Program-made: the position numbers and the translations under genes | NCBI GenBank assembly: GCA_965206845.1 | Contig: OZ242221.1 | Span: 1,322,679-1,354,678 of the forward strand | Direction: 5' to 3' | DNA length: 32,000 nt | Source of the DNA: Cenarchaeum sp. | GTDB taxonomy: Archaea > Thermoproteota > Nitrososphaeria > Nitrososphaerales > Nitrosopumilaceae | The notes under the pieces: model-generated | What the model saw: the letters and a program-made list of their open reading frames with translations, nothing else | Told to the model about the DNA's origin: nothing | The model's database searches: none | Part shown: positions 4,277 through 30,492 of the stretch, one piece after another | Position numbering within the stretch: position 1 is the stretch's first letter | How the letters are laid out: each line of letters starts with the position of its first letter

Positions 4277-5356
4277 CTACTGCAGAATCTTCTTCATCCG
4301 TTTCAGCTTTCTGGCATATCTGCTTGCGTCATGGGGCTCGTATGGTTCCTTGGCAGTCAGCATCTTCCAGATGATCCTCACCATCTTGTTTGCCACGTGT
4401 GTTATGGCAATCGGGTGGTTGCCACCGTGCCTTGTCTTGGCATTTTGATAGAACCACTTTAGTCTGTCATCATGGCGCACCGCCACGTTGGCTGCTTGGA
4501 TCATTATCCAGTTTACCCTTCGGTTTGACGCCTTTTTCATGCGGCCGTGGTGCGTCACGTTGCCGGACTGGCAGACTCGCGGACACATCCCGGTCCATGA
4601 GACCAGTCTGTCTGCGGTCTTGAACCTGGTGATGTCGCCAACCTCAGATACCAGCAGCATCGCGGCAAACGCCTCTATGCCAGTCATGCTCATCAGCAGT
4701 TTCGCATCCTCGTTGACTGCGGCCTGCCTGTCTATCTCTGCCTCGATGCCAGATATCTCCTCTGTGGCATGTGCAATCCTTTTGACGCAGTTTTGCAGGA
4801 TCATGTTGTCATTTGGTTTCTTAAGGCGTATCTGCGAAAGCAGCCTGATGGCCTTTTTGCTGTGCATCCTTGAGACATCTGGCATCACGTCGTACTTGTC
4901 AAGCAAGCCGTGCGTGTAGTTGATCAGGGCAGTCCTTGCCTGAACCATGCTTATCCTGTACCTGAGCAGTTCCCTGACATCGCGCAAATCCGATGGTGCC
5001 ACGTAGCATTCTGGGATAATCCCCACGCGCAGCGCGTTTGCAATCTTTTGCGCGTCGATGGGATCCGTCTTGACATCGGTGTCCGATATTATCTTCATCT
5101 TGTACGTGTTGGCAAGCTTTACCGGTATCCCGCACCCCTCGAAGGCCTCAAACGTCTTGAGCCACATGTTTCCAGTCGACTCGCACGCGGCCCTGCACCG
5201 TCCCTTCCCGCTGTATTCTTTTTTCATCCTGCGTGCAAACTCTTTTGCGTCTTCCAGCGTGTTCACGTATGATGTCCTCTCCAGCACGTTTCCCTTGCCG
5301 TCCACTACGCATACCATGCATTTTCCCTTACCAATGTCTATTCCTATGTTTCTCAT
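4277..5356 (-). CDS. IS110-family (DEDD) transposase/recombinase
   Basis: It has the N-terminal IGIDIGKGK DEDD motif region and the C-terminal Transposase_20-like pattern (LMSMTGIEAFAAMLLVSEVGDITRF..., SGNVTHHGRMKKASNRRVN). The ATG at 5356 is preceded by GGAGGTGA about 10 nt upstream. The track ORF extends to 5410. Confidence 0.85.
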   Translation of the reverse strand: MRNIGIDIGKGKCMVCVVDGKGNVLERTSYVNTLEDAKEFARRMKKEYSGKGRCRAACESTGNMWLKTFEAFEGCGIPVKLANTYKMKIISDTDVKTDPIDAQKIANALRVGIIPECYVAPSDLRDVRELLRYRISMVQARTALINYTHGLLDKYDVMPDVSRMHSKKAIRLLSQIRLKKPNDNMILQNCVKRIAHATEEISGIEAEIDRQAAVNEDAKLLMSMTGIEAFAAMLLVSEVGDITRFKTADRLVSWTGMCPRVCQSGNVTHHGRMKKASNRRVNWIMIQAANVAVRHDDRLKWFYQNAKTRHGGNHPIAITHVANKMVRIIWKMLTAKEPYEPHDASRYARKLKRMKKILQ

Positions 5357-5726
5357 CCTTTCTCTCACCTCCTTGCGGATTGTTTTTGATGGATCGGAAG
5401 CTGCAATCACCTATCAGTGCGCGAAGCACAGGAACACAGCAGCTCGGATTGCCCCATTCAAATGAAAGTGCGCGGAGCACATGGTTATCAAGGGGTCGAT
5501 CCACTGCCACGACTACGACGAGGATGTTTTTCCAAATGAATCAAATCTACAGAACCGATTCCAGTTCATATGTGCTTGTAGGACACAGTTTGTGTTTGCA
5601 GGGCGCGCATGCGGCAGGCTTCTGCTCCATTCGGGCGCAGGTCTGCGCACCCGGTCACGCCTTCGCGCTTGGCGCTACGGCAGACGATTCCTGCGTTGCT
5701 TACGTGCCCGGACTGAAGGTTCGGGC

Positions 5727-8871: not shown

Positions 8872-9306
8872 TCATCCGTCCCGGCGGAGCGACTCGAGCA
8901 GCTCCCTGTAGGTGCTCTGCAGATCTACCTTGCGGTACACCGGCGTGAATATCTTGATCCTGACGGGACTCTGCTGGAGCAGCTTCAGTCTGCCCTGGAC
9001 AAACTCCTGCCTGTCAAAGCGCAGGTATATTCCGGAACCCGAGACAAAGAGATCCATGTCCTCCAGTATCTCCTGAAACTGCCCATTCTTCATGCGCCGC
9101 ACCATCCTGCCGACAAACCTGCTGGCCTGCCTTCTGGCAATCTTGGCGCTCAGAACCGTGATGGGGTTCTCAAAGTGCCCGGTCTGGTGCGACACGGCAA
9201 AGTCGTCCTTGTGCAGGTCGTATATCTCAAAGGCATCAAAGAATTTTGTGGAATCCTCTGTGGCGTGAAGTATGACATCAATGCTAACTTCCAGCCTGTT
9301 TGCCAT
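8872..9306 (-). CDS. Small conserved archaeal protein, possibly a DUF54/COG1931-type RNA-binding protein
   Basis: 144 aa ORF with an N-terminal VSIDVILHATEDSTK pattern that resembles the DUF54 family. A TATA-like TTTGTATATAAC lies about 22 nt upstream of the ATG. The family assignment is from memory of the motif only. Confidence 0.6.
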   Translation of the reverse strand: MANRLEVSIDVILHATEDSTKFFDAFEIYDLHKDDFAVSHQTGHFENPITVLSAKIARRQASRFVGRMVRRMKNGQFQEILEDMDLFVSGSGIYLRFDRQEFVQGRLKLLQQSPVRIKIFTPVYRKVDLQSTYRELLESLRRDG

Positions 9307-9323
9307 CTTGTGACTAGGCTATG

Positions 9324-11172
9324 GGGAGTTATATACAAAAGTTACCAGAACCCTTGCCTTTTTTTGGCGCTCTGGCGATCCCTCCCATGCTTGCCTCTCG
9401 CATGTTGTTCGCGGAGCGCGCGAGAGCAATCCCGCGCTGGAATCTCGCGCCTTGGGACGACGTTCCCCGCCGCTCTGCCGTCGCCTTGACGGCAATGTTG
9501 TACGCGACATTGATGTCCGCGTTGATGTCGTTCTTACACCTGTGGTTCGTGCAGTGAAACTCCCCCTGCGATATCCGGGAGTCCTTGTCCCTGCGGCTGC
9601 AGACGTGGCATGTTGTGCTGGTGCCTCTGGGGTCGACCGTTATGATCATCACGCCGGCGTTCGCGCATGCGCCCTCAATCCGCATTTGGAACGTCCTGGG
9701 ACGCGAGTACGCCATCTCTCGGTTGAGGCCGGTCTTGGCCGAGCTGCCTTTGCCTTTGGCAGTCATGTTCTTGACTTTCAGATCCTCGATGACCACCGTG
9801 CCGGCGCCCTCCGCCACCTTCTTTGACGCGTGCCTCTCCCAGTTGGTCTGCCTGTTGGCGACCTTTTCCCTCTTCTTCTGGATTCTTCTTTGGAGCTCCT
9901 TGTAGCCTCTTGACTTTGGCTTCCTTGGCCTGTCGCGCCTGGCATTCCTGTTGATGCTGCTAGCATTGTCCTGCTTGCCGTTCGCGTTGCCATCGTGGCC
10001 GCCGCCCTTGCCGTTCTGCCTGATGCGCCTGTTTCCGCTCCCGCCGCGCTTCCGCGAGAGCTCCGAGTACATCTTCGATATCTCATCACCCTTCGTCCTC
10101 CTGCAGCCGTCCGGAATGTCGTGGAACGTATGATGACCTGTATCCAAGTCGACCGTCGTTGCGCCGTGGACTATGCCCATGTCGACTCCCCTGATGACCG
10201 CATATTCTGATGGCTTGGGCGCCTTTATCCCGACCTGGATGTGGAGGCGGTACGTCCTGTGGCGGTCCTTTGTGAGTCTGGTTGTCTTCTTGGTCGTCTC
10301 CACCAGCTGGAATGAACGCATGTCAAGCCCATCCACGTCACCATGCACCTTCACGGTGCTTATGCCGGGAAGATGCAGCAGGCCGCCGCCCTTGGACACG
10401 GGACTCTGAAAACACAGAGAGCTTGCCTTCCGTCCTTCCTCCTGAGCAGGTCGCCCTTGTGGCTCCACCTATTCCTCTTGTTGCTCCACTTGTTAGGCGG
10501 CAGGTTTGCCGCAGTGCCGATGTCTGGAATTCCCTCCTTTTCCCTGTCGTGCCTGGCTAGGTTTTTCCACATTATTTTGTTGTAGCGCTTGGTGGCGTTT
10601 GACTCCATGAACCTTTTCACGGCGTCCAGCCCCTGCCGGAGGCCGGTCCTCTGCACCCTGCTGTCACAGGCCTGCCGGAGTCCGACCGCCTGAGCGTCGT
10701 CATCACGGACAAGCCATGTGTTCGCGTTCCTCCATTTGGTGAGCATGCCGTCAAGGTCAAATTTGGTTATTCTCGGGTCGCCCAGAACCTTCCGGACGGG
10801 CATGTTGTACGCCCACCTCTGCTGGTCCATGTGGCGCGATATCAGCTTTGACAGATCCCCGGACTGGTCAAAGTCCACTTTTATCGTGCGGACCATGATG
10901 CCCTTCCTTGCGCGCCTTGGCCCCTTTTTTGGCGCCGGCGCGGTTACGGTTGCCATGATGGGTTTCATTACCGCATGCAAATGTCAAATGTGTATAAAAA
11001 CACCGCGACTATACCATGCAGACCGTCCGCACCGGCATGGGCATCAATGCCATTATGCCTGCCCATGCGGTTCCCGCCGTCCAGATTGCCGCGCCGGTAT
11101 CGCGCAAAGGCAGCGCGTGAAAAGGAGCGCCAAAAAAGGCAGGGGTTTTGGTTACTTTTGTATGTAATTCCC
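9324..11172 (-). mobile_element. TnpB-only (IS1341-like, IS200/IS605 superfamily) element bounded by about 48 bp imperfect terminal inverted repeats
   Basis: 9324-9372 (GGGAGTTATATACAAAAGTTACCAGAACCCTTGCCTTTTTTTGGCGCTC) matches the reverse complement of 11125-11172 (GGGAATTACATACAAAAGTAACCAAAACCCCTGCCTTTTTTGGCGCTC). The pair brackets the tnpB reading frames exactly. The element fills the rps3ae / DUF54-like intergenic space. Confidence 0.65.
9329..10968 (-). pseudogene. tnpB: tnpB (RuvC-like RNA-guided endonuclease family) split by one frameshift near 10405-10430
   Basis: The N-terminal frame (10360-10968, MKPIMATV...MVRTIKVDF...) and the C-terminal frame (9329-10468) overlap. The C-terminal frame keeps RuvC D (GVDMGI), E (VVIEDL), D (DINADINVAYNI), and the zinc finger CHVC...CTNHRC. 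The TATA TTTTTATACA (10991-11000) lies 23 nt upstream of the ATG at 10968. The frameshift could be real decay or a sequencing or assembly error. Confidence 0.7.
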
Positions 11173-11175
11173 GGG

Positions 11176-11787
11176 TTATGCCTCAAGGAGTGTGATCTGC
11201 TGTTGCGCCGTCTGCACCAGCTTTACCTTCTCCAGCCCAACATGCCTCAGCCGGACCAGCTTCTTGCCTGCCGCCATTATGTCCGAGTTGATCTTGCCGT
11301 AGCATGTGGCCTGCACGAACTGCGCGATGGTCATCTCCGGCACGGACTTCTCTATGACCTCCTTGGCGATCAGCCTGAGGGCGCGCATTCTTGACGTGTT
11401 GAGCTGGCGGTGCGTCAGTACGAGCACCTTGATTCTAAAGGTATACTCGTCCTTTGTCCTGACGTCCATGATTAAGTTGATCCGGGACGAGCCGCGCCGC
11501 ACTAGGCTGCGCAGGTACTCCTTGGCGTACTCGTATCGCTTGAAGATGCTTGTGGCCCGATCCCCGTCAATGTCGTCGATCTGAAAGTAAATCTTGTACT
11601 GGTTTTGGGAGGGATCCCCCTTTAGGATATCGTGCAGGGTTACCTCGATTACTCTGCCTTTGGCACCCTCCTCGCTGGTAACGGGAATGTATGCCACAAA
11701 GACGTTTCTGAACGAGTCGGGAGCGTATACGGTAATCCATTTCTTCTCCCGCCACTTGTCCTTCACTCGTGTCTTTCGGCGCGCCAA
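11176..11787 (-). CDS. rps3ae: 30S ribosomal protein S3Ae (eS1)
   Basis: 203 aa. It starts MARRKTRVKDKWREKKWITVYAP and is S3Ae-like over its whole length. Confidence 0.9.
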   Translation of the reverse strand: MARRKTRVKDKWREKKWITVYAPDSFRNVFVAYIPVTSEEGAKGRVIEVTLHDILKGDPSQNQYKIYFQIDDIDGDRATSIFKRYEYAKEYLRSLVRRGSSRINLIMDVRTKDEYTFRIKVLVLTHRQLNTSRMRALRLIAKEVIEKSVPEMTIAQFVQATCYGKINSDIMAAGKKLVRLRHVGLEKVKLVQTAQQQITLLEA

Positions 11788-11843
11788 TTACTCAAGACCT
11801 TCGAGCCCAAAATATAAGGGTATGTTACAGGTGTGTGGGTCAG

Positions 11844-18810: not shown

Positions 18811-18834
18811 TAAGATAAAAGGAAAAGGTTTGGG
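18811..18834 (-). terminator. T-rich terminator of amoB, sharing a motif with the amoA terminator
   Basis: After the stop, the minus strand reads CCTCCCAAACCTTTTCCTTTTATCTTA. After the amoA stop the sequence is ATCCCCAACCTTTTCCTTTTCTATTTT. Confidence 0.5.
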
Positions 18835-18837
18835 AGG

Positions 18838-21116: not shown

Positions 21117-22250
21117 TGTGGGATCCAGAAAGTAGTTCCCCCCTCACGCCGCATGATACTCCTCCCCCGTCTGCTCGTCAATAACGGCCTCTCCCTTTGG
21201 AGGCATCTTGCGCACAAACGCCTGGGCTGGCGTCTCCCGCTCGTCCCTGTTCAGTGACATGTGCGGCCTGTCATGATTGTACCACTGCATGAACAGATCT
21301 ATGGGATCGCTCTTGCGCATCAGCATTGCCTCAAACTCGGGCAGCTTGCGCCGGATCTTCCCGTACAGCCTCTCCAGCTTGCCGTTGGTCTGCGGGTGCT
21401 TGACGCGCGCCAGAATCTGGTGGATTCCCAGCCCGACCAGCCTCTTCTCGAAATCAGACGCCCCCTTCCTCTTTGCCTCTGACGCGTTGGCATAGAACTG
21501 GGAGCCGTGGTCGGTCATTATCGAAGCCGGCTTGCCGTGGTTCTTTATGGCCTCCTCCAGCACGGCCAGCGCGTTCTCCGTAGTGGCATGCTCAAGCGCC
21601 CCGTACCCGGTGACAAACCGCGAGGCGTCGTCCCCGTAGCACAGGAACCACCTGCCGTCGTCTGACAGCTTGAAGTCCGTGTGCCACATGGAGTTGGAGT
21701 AGGTGCGCTCGTAGCGGATCCACTTCCGTCTCTGGCTCTTCTTTGGCTGCCTGGATGCCAGATGCTCGTCCCTCAATATCTTGTGGTGGTGCTGTGGGGG
21801 ATATTTATTCCGGTGCTGTCCCTTATGCCGTCCTGCATGCCTGCAGCCCCCAGGTGCTCCCTGTAGCGGACAGAGAGCACTGCAGAGTGCTCCCGGCGGC
21901 CCGGGAGGCCGTTCTCGGGCCTGCCCATGCGTGCAGGATGGAGTATCTTGCCGGCATCCGCGTGCTTGTACCGGACCCAGAGCTTCTTGACCCAGCGCGT
22001 GGATACGTCCATGGTCTGGGCAACGTGGTTGGCGGTGGCCCCCTTTCGCTTCTGGGCTATGATCCACCTGACCTTGGATTCATCTAGTTTTTTCATTACA
22101 CGAACCCTTCGGCCGCCTATGTGTCTCCACAGCCTGGCGCATTCTGGCCGGATCCGAGCGCCTTCATTCCCGGTAAGGGAAACGCTCGCACTGTCTTTCA
22201 GACGTTTTGCTCCTTCCGACAGGGGGTGAACTACTTTTCGGACTACAGAC
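21117..22250 (-). mobile_element. IS481-like insertion sequence (about 1.13 kb) flanked by a 13 bp direct repeat
   Basis: The direct repeat GCCCATACGACTA occurs at 21104-21116 and 22251-22263. The imperfect terminal inverted repeats are TGTGGGATCCAGAAAGTAGTTCCCCCC (21117-21143) and the reverse complement of 22222-22247, TGTAGTCCGAAAAGTAGTTCACCCCC. Both begin with TGT. The element encloses an rve-type transposase. Confidence 0.8.
21144..22096 (-). pseudogene. HTH + rve (DDE integrase-core) transposase, IS481-like, interrupted by one frameshift near 21781-21795
   Basis: The N-terminal frame (21773-22096, MKKLDESKVRWIIAQKRKGATANHVAQTMDVSTRWVKK...) joins the C-terminal frame, which carries WHTDF, MTDHGSQF, and TNGKLERLYGKI. 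The frames switch inside CACAGCACCACCACAAG (..GINIPHST / HKILRDE..). Confidence 0.75.
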
Positions 22251-22706: not shown

Positions 22707-22934
22707 AGCTTCAGTAATCCCAGATGTGCCAGATCTAGCACCTGTGAGAGTTTAGATCACCTCCATCATGCCCATGAAGAGTTCAATTTGGCATGGGTCA
22801 AACCCTCGTATTCTGTCGTATGCGTCGTCATTTGTGTCTAAACCTACATGAAATGGCCAAAAATATCTGAGTGGGACCAGCCCCTCACTCAGTCAAATGG
22901 TGGCGACTTAACCTCTTACTGGCACATCTGGGAT
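22707..22934. repeat. MITE-like 228 bp element with near-perfect 25/26 bp terminal inverted repeats in the amoX-amoA spacer
   Basis: 22712-22732 (CAGTAATCCCAGATGTGCCAG) is the exact reverse complement of 22910-22930. AGCT extends both arms, with a 1 nt indel. An internal 9 bp hairpin is CTGAGTGGG...CCTCACTCAG. No coding capacity is evident. Confidence 0.6.
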
Positions 22935-23103
22935 TACTGAGCTTACATGCTGGGCTTGCTGTGGCCAGAACCGTGCTCCGGCCTGTTCTAGGACGTCTCT
23001 GCCCGGCAGAAGACTACCGATCTGGGGTATGGCGACCCTGCCGTATGGCAACACCTGATGCGCCGAGTCAGGCGTGGATTCCCATGCGACTCTCGCGCAG
23101 GCG

Positions 23104-23792: not shown

Positions 23793-23796
23793 ATCC

Positions 23797-23820
23797 CCAA
23801 CCTTTTCCTTTTCTATTTTG
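23797..23820 (+). terminator. T-rich terminator after amoA
   Basis: CCAACCTTTTCCTTTTCTATTTTG starts 5 nt after the stop codon. Confidence 0.5.
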
Positions 23821-29265: not shown

Positions 29266-30492
29266 CGGCTGCCGGGGGTTGGTGCGTAATTCTCCGAACC
29301 GCCTAGACCAGTCCGATACGTTCAATGATCCGCGATCTCCCGCACGCGGCAATGAGCGAACACAACAGACGGGAAGGATACTGGCAGTACTATGAACTGG
29401 CAAAGGAAGTCGAGGCACCTAGTCTGAAGAGGACGCTGATCGAGATAATCCGGGAGAACCCTTGCCCGCGCCGAGAAAACGGCAACAGGGGCCGTCCCCC
29501 GGTTCACTCCAAGGAGAAACTGGACTTTGCCTGTCTGCTGATGATGGCAGGCAACAACACCTATCGCGGAGTCGAATCGGACCTGCGAGGCATGCGGACA
29601 CCATGGGACAACGAGCCCGTCCCGGACCATACCACACTGGTCAGGCACCTCCAGACGATACCGGCAGACTGGCTCGATCTGATCGTGGCCGAGACGGCCC
29701 GCCGTTGCATCAAGGAGGCGGACGAGGCGACGGGCCCGCTGGGAGCCGACAGCAGCGCGGCGGAGACCACTAGGTACGAATACGTCGAGAGGCCAAGCAG
29801 GAAGGAGCGCGACTTCGTCGAGACACGCCAAAAGACCTACTGGAAATACCACATAACGGCCATCTTGGGCCTGCAGATCGTGCTGGCGGCGTTCACCACG
29901 CCCAGCAACATCAACGACACGACCATGCTTCCAGTCATGCTGGCTGAGATCAGGCGTCGCGGGTTTGACTTTGCGGGGAACTTCTTTGACGGGGACAAGG
30001 GGTACGACTCTGACTACAACTGCGAGCTGCTGTTCTGGATGGGCATGATCCCCAACATCAAGCAACGGAAGGATGCCGTCAACCGTGGCAAGTCGCACAG
30101 GAGGAAGGCAGCTGGCATGTTCAGCGATAGCGAGTACAGAAAGAGGGCCCTGATAGAGGGCATCTTCGGGGCCGAGGAGACCCGGCGGCACCAGCTGCAC
30201 TGCCGGTTCGTCCGGAAGGACAACCGGCGCCTGTTCGCCAAGGGAAGGGCGATCGCCTGGAACATCCGGGTCCTCAACCGGTTCGAGTGCGCCAACCGGC
30301 TAAACATACCAATACCCTCCTACGGTGGCATGGCGCACGTGGAGTGCGCCTGATGATCCGACCCGTCAGTAGCTGATCACGGCGTGCGGGCAACAAAAGC
30401 CCGACACGCACCAAAGCACCGCCGGTGAAGATGCGGTGGGAGACACACATGAGCAGGACGGAGCAGAATTACGCACCAACCCCCGGCTGCCG
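29266..30492 (+). mobile_element. IS5-family insertion sequence (about 1.23 kb) with 28 bp terminal inverted repeats (1 mismatch)
   Basis: 29266-29293 is CGGCTGCCGGGGGTTGGTGCGTAATTCT. The reverse complement of 30465-30492 is CGGCAGCCGGGGGTTGGTGCGTAATTCT. The pair encloses a DDE transposase. I found no clear target duplication. Confidence 0.8.
29325..30353 (+). CDS. IS5/IS4-type DDE transposase (DDE_Tnp_1)
   Basis: 342 aa. GADSSAAET, FDGDKGYDS, and RALIEGIFG match the D, D, E regions typical of IS5-family transposases. The 292 aa antisense ORF at 29322-30200 is a shadow. Confidence 0.88.
   Translation: MIRDLPHAAMSEHNRREGYWQYYELAKEVEAPSLKRTLIEIIRENPCPRRENGNRGRPPVHSKEKLDFACLLMMAGNNTYRGVESDLRGMRTPWDNEPVPDHTTLVRHLQTIPADWLDLIVAETARRCIKEADEATGPLGADSSAAETTRYEYVERPSRKERDFVETRQKTYWKYHITAILGLQIVLAAFTTPSNINDTTMLPVMLAEIRRRGFDFAGNFFDGDKGYDSDYNCELLFWMGMIPNIKQRKDAVNRGKSHRRKAAGMFSDSEYRKRALIEGIFGAEETRRHQLHCRFVRKDNRRLFAKGRAIAWNIRVLNRFECANRLNIPIPSYGGMAHVECA

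Follow-up and report, generated by a model that had tools for sequence, protein, structure and literature searches.

A tnpB element with long terminal inverted repeats beside rps3ae in a Cenarchaeum genome, probably a non-autonomous transposon of the IS1595 type

The DNA considered here is a stretch of 32,000 nucleotides from the genome of a Cenarchaeum sp. (assembly GCA_965206845.1, contig OZ242221.1, positions 1,322,679 to 1,354,678), which is called the window in the following and to which all positions refer unless a locus is named. Between the gene of ribosomal protein S3Ae (rps3ae) and a gene for an RNA-binding protein of family PF01877 it contains an element at 9324-11172 which carries a tnpB gene and is bounded by terminal inverted repeats (TIRs). 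This element is most probably a non-autonomous transposon of the IS1595 type with tnpB and a putative guide RNA on board. The copy in the window is designated W, and the labels L081 to L155 stand for other fetched loci and assemblies. The element, its ends and the two flanking host genes are the following.

9324..11172, minus strand: whole element, 1849 bp, with limits taken from the TIR tips, the 8-bp duplication, an empty site (L139-L144) and an uninterrupted junction in L138
11125..11172, minus strand: left-end TIR, 48 nt, upstream of tnpB, inward reading GGGAATTACATACAAAAGTAACCAAAACCCCTGCCTTTTTTGGCGCTC
9324..9372, plus strand: right-end TIR, 49 nt, inward reading GGGAGTTATATACAAAAGTTACCAGAACCCTTGCCTTTTTTTGGCGCTC
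11173..11180, minus strand: left copy of the 8-bp duplication, CATAACCC, which includes the rps3ae stop codon (flank comparison)
9316..9323, minus strand: right copy of the 8-bp duplication, CATAGCCT (flank comparison)
11176-11787, minus strand: rps3ae, upstream host gene (Pfam Ribosomal_S3Ae, E = 3e-60)
8872-9306, minus strand: PF01877 RNA-binding protein gene, downstream host gene (Pfam RNA_binding, E = 2e-20)

In a repeat search the inverted arms 9324-9364 and 11132-11172 (41 nt, 88% complementary) proved to be the longest inverted pair of the region, and a gapped alignment of 9324-9372 with 11125-11172 yielded 43 matches, 5 mismatches and one indel in a T run. An earlier note on this DNA had described an inverted repeat with a few substitutions and a difference in a T run at exactly these positions, with its ends 3 nt from the rps3ae stop and 18 nt from the next start codon. 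The repeat is present as described, and the distances were found to be 3 nt to the rps3ae stop and 17-18 nt to the ATG of the PF01877 gene at the opposite end. Three features were not part of that note, namely the 8-bp target duplication, the frameshift in tnpB as a genuine lesion and the location of the tnpB stop within the right TIR, the minus strand of which codes for the final TnpB residues and the TAA stop (9329-9331). Both the 19-nt core ACAAAAGTWACCARAACCC of the TIR and its 13-nt tip GGGAATTATATAC are present exactly twice in the window, at the two element ends, and two or more matches were obtained in 0 of 100 dinucleotide-preserving shuffles.

The two copies of the duplication, CATAACCC and CATAGCCT, match at 6 of 8 positions in the window and at 7 of 8 in L082. 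At the same locus in other assemblies the left copy reads CATAGCCC (L082 and L145) or CATAGTCC (L081). An empty site, which the earlier note had proposed to look for together with a target duplication, was found in L139-L144, from a species with 90% identical S3Ae. There only 14 nt separate the rps3ae stop from the PF01877 gene, and neither TIR nor tnpB is present. In L138, from a strain with 98% identical S3Ae, GAGGCATAGCCTAG is unbroken, the left flank being followed by the duplication sequence in one copy. The target of the insertion is CATAGCCT, spanning the rps3ae stop, and the duplication restored the stop codon. As a separate observation, the DNA directly after the rps3ae stop in L138 (2880-5000 of that contig, which has a coverage of only 2x) is swapped for a different segment, which may be an integrated mobile element and contains a further tnpB element along with a D5_N/DUF5906 primase-like gene.

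With its reading frame repaired, the TnpB of the window has more than 199 homologues of 550-600 amino acids, which occur in multiple copies on contigs of 1.6-2.5 Mb. The hosts of this family are Thaumarchaeota, with S3Ae proteins 75-80% identical to proteins named Nitrosopumilaceae or Nitrosopumilales, and TFIIB, PCNA and blue copper proteins are encoded among the neighbouring genes. A scan of genome contigs with the repaired TnpB recovered distant bacterial TnpBs only (27-40% identity) and no member of the close family. Scans of viral contigs gave no TnpB relative, and the TIR pattern introduced below recovered there only the already known bacterial prophage-like contigs.

Nine further elements of the family at distinct loci (L084, L085, L091, L134, L135, L137, L138, L154 and L155) were compared with the window copy, giving ten in all. 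All nine begin and finish with inverted GGGAATTAYATA and have the tip GGGAATTATATAC at both ends; the rps3ae insertion itself recurs in four other assemblies, each time with the repeat at its ends. An 8-bp duplication is present at 9 of the 10 elements, that is at W and at eight of the nine further copies, where it is either exact (TGATTCAA, TTTGATAT, TAATAATC, TTAACTTA, CTCCAAAG and CAATCTAG) or matches at 7 of 8 positions (TTCGACAA/TTCGGCAA and CCATATGC/CCATATGT). The TIRs range from 23 to 80 nt across the ten elements and divide into two sub-lineages, one with TIRs of 23-26 nt and elements of 1.9-2.1 kb, the other, which includes the window copy, with TIRs of 48-80 nt and elements of 1.84-1.92 kb. 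The left junction of L155, which reads AGG followed by CATAACCA and GGGAATTAC, is similar to that of the window copy, where GAGG is followed by CATAACCC and GGGAATTAC; this likeness could be due to coincidence, to a weak target preference or to recombination.

The earlier note had also considered that the repeat might turn up at unrelated intergenic sites as a promoter or terminator module. Such a host module bracketing tnpB, rather than a transposon end, has one feature in its favour, since the tip includes TTATATA, a good archaeal TATA box, the centre of which in the window lies 26 nt before the ATG of the downstream gene. It is nevertheless exceedingly improbable, because in the window and in the archaeal loci scanned the motif stands only at the ends of tnpB units, always as an inverted pair flanked by the duplication, because the empty site is devoid of it, and because bacterial transposons end in the same sequence.

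These bacterial transposons were found with a 21-nt pattern which was made from the archaeal TIRs alone and scanned against a metagenome collection. It gave 36 matches, none of which codes for a relative of this TnpB. Many of the matches in DNA of high GC content are transposon ends, with inverted TIR pairs 1.5-2.6 kb apart around a transposase of about 310 amino acids. This enclosed transposase matches Pfam DDE_Tnp_IS1595 (E = 2e-40) and Zn_ribbon_IS1595 as well as NCBIfam transpos_IS1595 (196 bits), and an IS1595 transposase (PF12762 plus PF12760) is encoded in the TIR-sharing elements L129, L125, L126, L131 and L133. Four TIR-sharing elements, L133, L126, L108 and L107, have exact 8-bp duplications (AAAAAAAG, CAATTTAG, CAATTAAA and ATAGTTAG). 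The cargo of the TIR-sharing elements comprises N6 and C5 DNA methyltransferases, an EcoRI-like restriction-modification pair and a PAPS-reductase-like gene, and there are transposase-less derivatives, L108 and the miniature element L107 of 454 bp. The latter (2098-2551 of its contig), flanked by the duplication ATAGTTAG, lies in the TIR of another element of the same family, into which it had inserted.

The terminal GGGAATTAYATA is common to the ten archaeal tnpB elements and the IS1595-family transposons. Terminal identity between the two groups amounts to 19-25 nt, and up to 24 nt are identical barring a 2-nt indel, which is the sole difference between the archaeal right end GGGAATTATATACATGAGTGTACAGT and the bacterial end GGGAATTATATACATGAGTACAGTT. 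These features are in keeping with the ISNwi1-like subgroup of IS1595 in ISfinder, which has ends of the form ggnnatTAT, 8-bp direct repeats and frequent passenger genes. As no IS1595 transposase is encoded in the window element, it can only be a non-autonomous derivative. Thus, with its tips GGGAATTAYATAC, TIRs of about 48 bp, an 8-bp duplication and no transposase gene, the element is most probably a non-autonomous transposon of the IS1595 type with TnpB as cargo. Two further outcomes of the pattern scan are to be mentioned. The matches in low-GC DNA (L101-L104, L112, L117, L120 and L130) lie within bacterial coding genes and lack a second arm, and were discarded as chance matches. In L124 (5362-6358), a metagenome contig probably of bacterial origin, a TIR of the IS1595 type is followed after 64 nt by an open reading frame in which an HTH_OrfB_IS605 N-terminus, a TnpB remnant unrelated to the TnpB described here, is fused to a fragment of an N6 methyltransferase. 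This hints that TnpB cargo in this type of transposon is not confined to archaea.

TnpB is the hallmark cargo of IS200/IS605 and IS607 elements, and the supplement of PMC6563490 annotates thaumarchaeal tnpB genes as 'IS200/IS605 ssgr IS1341'. The window element might accordingly be viewed as an ordinary IS200/IS605 (IS1341-group) or IS607 element served by a Y1 or serine TnpA, with the repeat being subterminal hairpins or a coincidence; a G or GG next to the target, described below, is moreover reminiscent of the GG core site of IS607 (PMC13565253). This explanation is very improbable. The earlier note had stated that IS200/IS605 elements have no TIRs, which agrees with the literature: both groups are described as having neither TIRs nor duplications (PMC13565253, PMC6188088, PMC3119063), while here TIRs are found in 10 of 10 elements and duplications in 9 of 10. 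In addition, no TnpA gene adjoins any copy, and the Pfam lists of the neighbouring genes contain no serine recombinase. The duplications and TIRs therefore rule out the mechanics of IS200/IS605 and IS607 and, as features of the sequence, suggest that a DDE transposase acts in trans. Together with the IS1595-type ends they support the proposal of the earlier note that the element would be mobilised in trans by a different type of transposase, for which a partner was not found in the archaeal DNA specified in the next paragraph.

Several observations weigh against the reading as an IS1595-type transposon. The TIR-sharing IS1595 elements are bacterial, with one cluster named Bryobacteraceae and a DnaB neighbour in L129. 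No IS1595 transposase was detected by tblastn and Pfam lists in the window or in the fetched thaumarchaeal DNA (about 100-150 kb), a DDE_Tnp_IS1595 gene is absent from 10 of 10 archaeal tnpB elements, and none of the elements examined has both an IS1595 transposase and tnpB. The transposases in the Pfam lists of the archaeal loci are IS110, IS66, DDE_Tnp_1 and rve only. L155 (951-2901), finally, has no matching duplication and sits within a 30-nt solo TIR remnant of another family member. When the IS1595 transposase of L129 was used as a protein query, only close bacterial relatives were recovered, on contigs of at most 84 kb, and an archaeal partner was beyond the reach of this search; remnants or fragments of the IS1595 family are on record for a thaumarchaeote, Nitrososphaera viennensis, in the supplement of PMC6563490.

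That no IS1595 transposase was seen in the archaeal loci, and that IS66, DDE_Tnp_1, rve and IS110 are common there, would suit mobilisation in trans by a DDE family other than IS1595 which makes 8-bp duplications (IS4, IS256, ISH6 or IS66-like), the likeness of the TIRs then being convergent or ancestral. To this we assign a small probability. The IS66-like transposase beside rps3ae in L081 was considered as the partner and rejected, as the ends of that insertion (CTCAGGTCC) and its duplication of about 12 bp are unrelated to those of the tnpB elements; the DDE_Tnp_1 element of the window has unrelated 28-bp TIRs; and the match to IS1595 ends, which is 19-25 nt long, came from an unbiased scan with a pattern.

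The tnpB gene between the arms lies on the minus strand and is broken into two open reading frames, 10360-10980 and 9329-10468, the second of which matches Pfam OrfB_IS605 and Cas12f1-like_TNB. Its parts, the lesion and a candidate promoter are located as follows.

10408..10968, minus strand: N-terminal part of tnpB (WED/REC region); the ATG at 10968 agrees with the MKPIM start of intact homologues
9329..10407, minus strand: C-terminal part of tnpB with RuvC-I/II/III (GVDMG, EDL, NADIN), a CxxC...CxxxxC zinc finger and the C-terminal tail (Pfam, family alignment)
10403..10413, near 10407, minus strand: 1-nt deletion in tnpB (frameshift), TTCAGAGT in place of the expected TTCAAGAGT
10992..11000, minus strand: TATA-like box TTTTTATAC, candidate tnpB promoter for a leaderless mRNA, about 24-32 nt upstream of the ATG

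According to the alignment, the D/E/D residues and the zinc finger are conserved across the TnpB family and also in the C-terminal reading frame of the window. Intact homologues match NCBIfam NF040570 at 141 bits (cut-off 100), and the solved structures nearest to the family TnpB are those of Cas12f and TnpB-type proteins. Judged by these sequence features the TnpB family appears to be catalytically intact. In every copy the TAA stop lies 5 nt from the element tip, the reading frame thus ending within the right TIR. The TATA-like block TTTTTATAC is conserved in an upstream alignment of W, L084 and L091 and may serve as promoter.

At the site of the deletion P0411, an intact homologue with at least 90% identity, reads ALCVFKSPVSKG, and the alignment sets the frameshift between ALCVF and KSPV. 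The identical 1-nt lesion is present in the independent short-read and long-read assemblies L081 and L082 and is therefore no sequencing error. In L145 and L146, from another population, the rps3ae insertion is intact at this position and is broken near the N-terminus by a miniature element. This element of 83 bp (L145 4925-5007) is bounded by 17-nt TIRs without a mismatch, TAGTTAGTTGCATAACC, and flanked by the 8-bp duplication GGGATCTG. The window copy is an old, fixed, dead and decaying insertion from which no full-length TnpB can be made, as seen from the split tnpB, from the TIR arms differing at 5 positions and by an indel, and from the duplication matching at only 6 of 8 positions.

Two independent inactivating lesions in the same rps3ae insertion, together with the divergence of the paralogues (58-75% protein identity), their fixed loci across assemblies and the fact that no partner transposase was seen, could also mean that the family is now immobile, through horizontal arrival or loss of the partner, and is kept or spread by homologous recombination driven by TnpB, with TIRs and duplications as relics. 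The likelihood of this is slight. L154 has 45 perfect TIR nucleotides, an exact duplication and a unique site, which argues for recent true transposition: on account of its perfect TIRs and exact duplication it is a young copy, and the family was mobile more recently than the insertion in the window. As to the origin of the copies, an immobile family would be compatible with an IS1595-type transposon as the vehicle.

Two features outside the coding function of tnpB are relevant to the action of intact members of the family. The first is a structured RNA region at the 3' end of the gene, the second a short motif beside the target. Their positions, together with that of a predicted guide segment, are given here.

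9324..9569, minus strand: structured RNA region, putative omega RNA scaffold, which overlaps the tnpB 3' end and extends to the element tip
9300..9323, minus strand: predicted guide segment of the omega RNA, CATAGCCTAGTCACAAGATGGCAA, comprising the right duplication copy and downstream flank, placed by the canonical TnpB geometry
11181..11182, minus strand: GG, candidate target-adjacent motif, directly 5' of the left duplication copy

For the last 250 nt or so of eight elements RNAalifold proposed a fold with several helices and 63 pairs, 14 of which show compensatory changes. In this consensus 96% of the cells are paired, compared with 34-51% when the partners are slid, and 0 of 500 shuffles equalled the observed covariation score or the count of double changes. 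The folding z-score was -2.3 for the sense and -1.3 for the antisense strand; this better sense value and conserved G-U pairs indicate that the predicted RNA is read from the tnpB strand. The last helix of the structure falls within the right TIR. In Rfam the region had no match at the gathering threshold or at E <= 1. By its position and form, which are as expected, the predicted structure is probably the scaffold of an omega (guide) RNA. Two points count against this assignment. The claim rests on covariation in eight sequences with a structure derived from the same alignment, and DNA identity in the last 200 nt (0.82-0.86) is modestly higher than in the rest of tnpB (about 0.75). After this profile of the full element had been obtained, strong conservation at the DNA level was dropped as an argument for the RNA. 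In the canonical TnpB geometry the guide is transcribed from the DNA just 3' of the right end.

In the orientation of tnpB the base directly preceding the left duplication copy is a G at 10 of 10 sites, and GG is found at 8 of them. At the first eight sites the probability of at least 7 of 8 GG was 2.6e-7, uncorrected. The mirror position 3' of the right duplication copy shows no enrichment of CC at the ten sites. A preference of the transposase should be symmetric, and a G/GG on the left side only therefore fits a TnpB target-adjacent motif. From its link to orientation the signal looks like such a motif, against which the small basis of 10 sites has to be held.

The following course of events would be consistent with these data. 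An IS1595-family DDE transposase supplied in trans would bind both TIRs, excise the element and insert it at a staggered 8-bp cut. At the locus described here this cut would have been made at CATAGCCT across the rps3ae stop, the duplication remaking the stop so that both flanking genes survive. In intact relatives the guide of a TnpB-omega RNA complex would be transcribed from the right flank, that is from the duplication copy and the DNA downstream. The unoccupied allele, with G/GG before the target, would then be cut by TnpB, and the occupied allele, with the tip ...TTCCC in that place, would be spared. Cleavage of the unoccupied allele would favour re-copying or retention of the element. 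For the guide, the motif and the homing in this model the chances are somewhat below even. It is possible that spread in these archaea now occurs mainly via re-copying driven by TnpB, as no partner transposase is evident.

Some observations concern the host genes and other mobile DNA nearby. Before the insertion the PF01877 gene stood 12-14 nt behind rps3ae, and the right TIR may now act as its promoter: TATATAA (9329-9335), read outward, is centred 26 nt 5' of the ATG (9304-9306), and 26 nt is the canonical archaeal spacing from TATA box to start for a leaderless mRNA. As a general downstream promoter this TATA box was rejected, since the spacing fits the window, roughly L085 and no other copies. 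An IS66-family insertion between serS and rps3ae in L081 (905-2580, corresponding to 11826-11837) is absent from the window; it has a duplicated junction of about 12 bp and inverted ends of the CTCAGGTCC type and represents an insertion polymorphism at the strain level. Within the window itself an inverted repeat of 28 nt (96% complementary) at 29266-30492 encloses a 1.2-kb unit with a DDE_Tnp_1 transposase gene (29325-30353, plus strand), which looks like a complete insertion sequence. At 22711-22940 the arms of a perfect 22-nt inverted repeat, separated by 186 nt, delimit a 230-bp unit resembling a miniature inverted-repeat element, near which lies an rve-type integrase/transposase gene (21144-22067, minus strand). 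With the IS110-family (DEDD) transposase gene at 4277-5410 there are at least four transposon types within 32 kb. A 24-nt inverted repeat (18812-18835 and 23794-23817, 88% complementary) has its arms 5 kb apart.

The earlier note had offered an undescribed architecture as an alternative to mobilisation in trans, which was too strong. Transposons of the DDE type bounded by TIRs and carrying TnpB, solo copies included, were reported by Altae-Tran et al. (2023, PNAS, PMC10691335), who distinguished six DDE-associated TnpB branches (DDE-1 to DDE-6), all with inverted terminal repeats. In these no more than 250 bp separate the 3' end of tnpB from the transposon end, and there are solo TnpBs with the same ends as elements that bear a transposase, which implies that they are mobilised in trans. 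The elements described here are alike in all of this, being TIR transposons which hold a tnpB with its 3' end near the tip and of which the solo copies presumably move in trans. In the text of that paper IS630 is the one DDE partner to be named, and a 2026 review (PMC13565253) lists ISL2, IS630 and IS1031. Compared with the main text and its named partners, the elements differ by their IS1595-type ends, 8-bp duplications, thaumarchaeal host and the fact that no copy with the transposase in cis was seen; they may still belong to one of the six branches. No paper linking TnpB to IS1595 came up in a search of the literature. The TIR-bounded TnpB architecture is rare but has been known since 2023, and no report of an IS1595 partner was found.

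With the passenger-carrying subgroup of the IS1595 family the element shares the terminal GGGAATTAT, TIRs of at least 23-31 nt, the 8-bp duplication, the carriage of cargo and the occurrence of transposase-less derivatives. Unlike in that family, a DDE_Tnp_IS1595 gene is missing from the window element, the cargo consists of an RNA-guided nuclease and a putative guide scaffold overlapping the right TIR, and the TIR has lengthened to 48-80 nt in the sub-lineage to which the window copy belongs. In the IS1341 group of IS200/IS605, too, TnpB combines RuvC and zinc-finger domains and a structured RNA lies over the 3' end of the gene, but the ends carry subterminal hairpins, the target is not duplicated and insertion takes place 3' of a motif of 4-5 nt; the element described here has TIRs and 8-bp duplications instead. 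From IS607 the element differs in the lack of a serine-recombinase TnpA and the presence of TIRs and duplications, the only likeness being the G/GG 5' of the target. As in OMEGA systems, the predicted structured RNA, based on eight sequences, overlaps the tnpB 3' end and ends at the right end. In eukaryotes Fanzor1 has been found in TIR transposons (Bao and Jurka 2013, PMC3627910; Saito 2023; Jiang 2023, PMC10530073). There too a TnpB-type nuclease is the cargo of cut-and-paste DDE transposons with TIRs and duplications, whereas the host here is prokaryotic and the protein has about 550 amino acids.

The label 'IS200/IS605 ssgr IS1341' misdescribes the ends and the likely mobilisation of these genes. 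It is a rather doubtful but conceivable extension that the thaumarchaeal TnpB family, with its more than 199 members, switched from an IS605/IS607 to an IS1595 shell, with its guide RNA running through the TIR, G/GG outside the duplication and a nuclease recognising the unoccupied allele only. According to the current view, TnpB aids elements such as IS605 and IS607, the excision of which leaves no scar: it cuts the donor site once this has been emptied, and the element is thereby restored by copying. Whether, and in what way, TnpB benefits cut-and-paste DDE transposons which leave duplications is an open question (discussed in PMC13565253), for which this family offers a compact natural test case in multiple copies, with defined TIRs and duplications, a covariation-supported putative scaffold ending in the TIR, an orientation-specific G/GG and intact members such as L154. 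If true, the placement of G/GG outside the duplication would be a natural solution for RNA-guided homing in a transposon which makes duplications.

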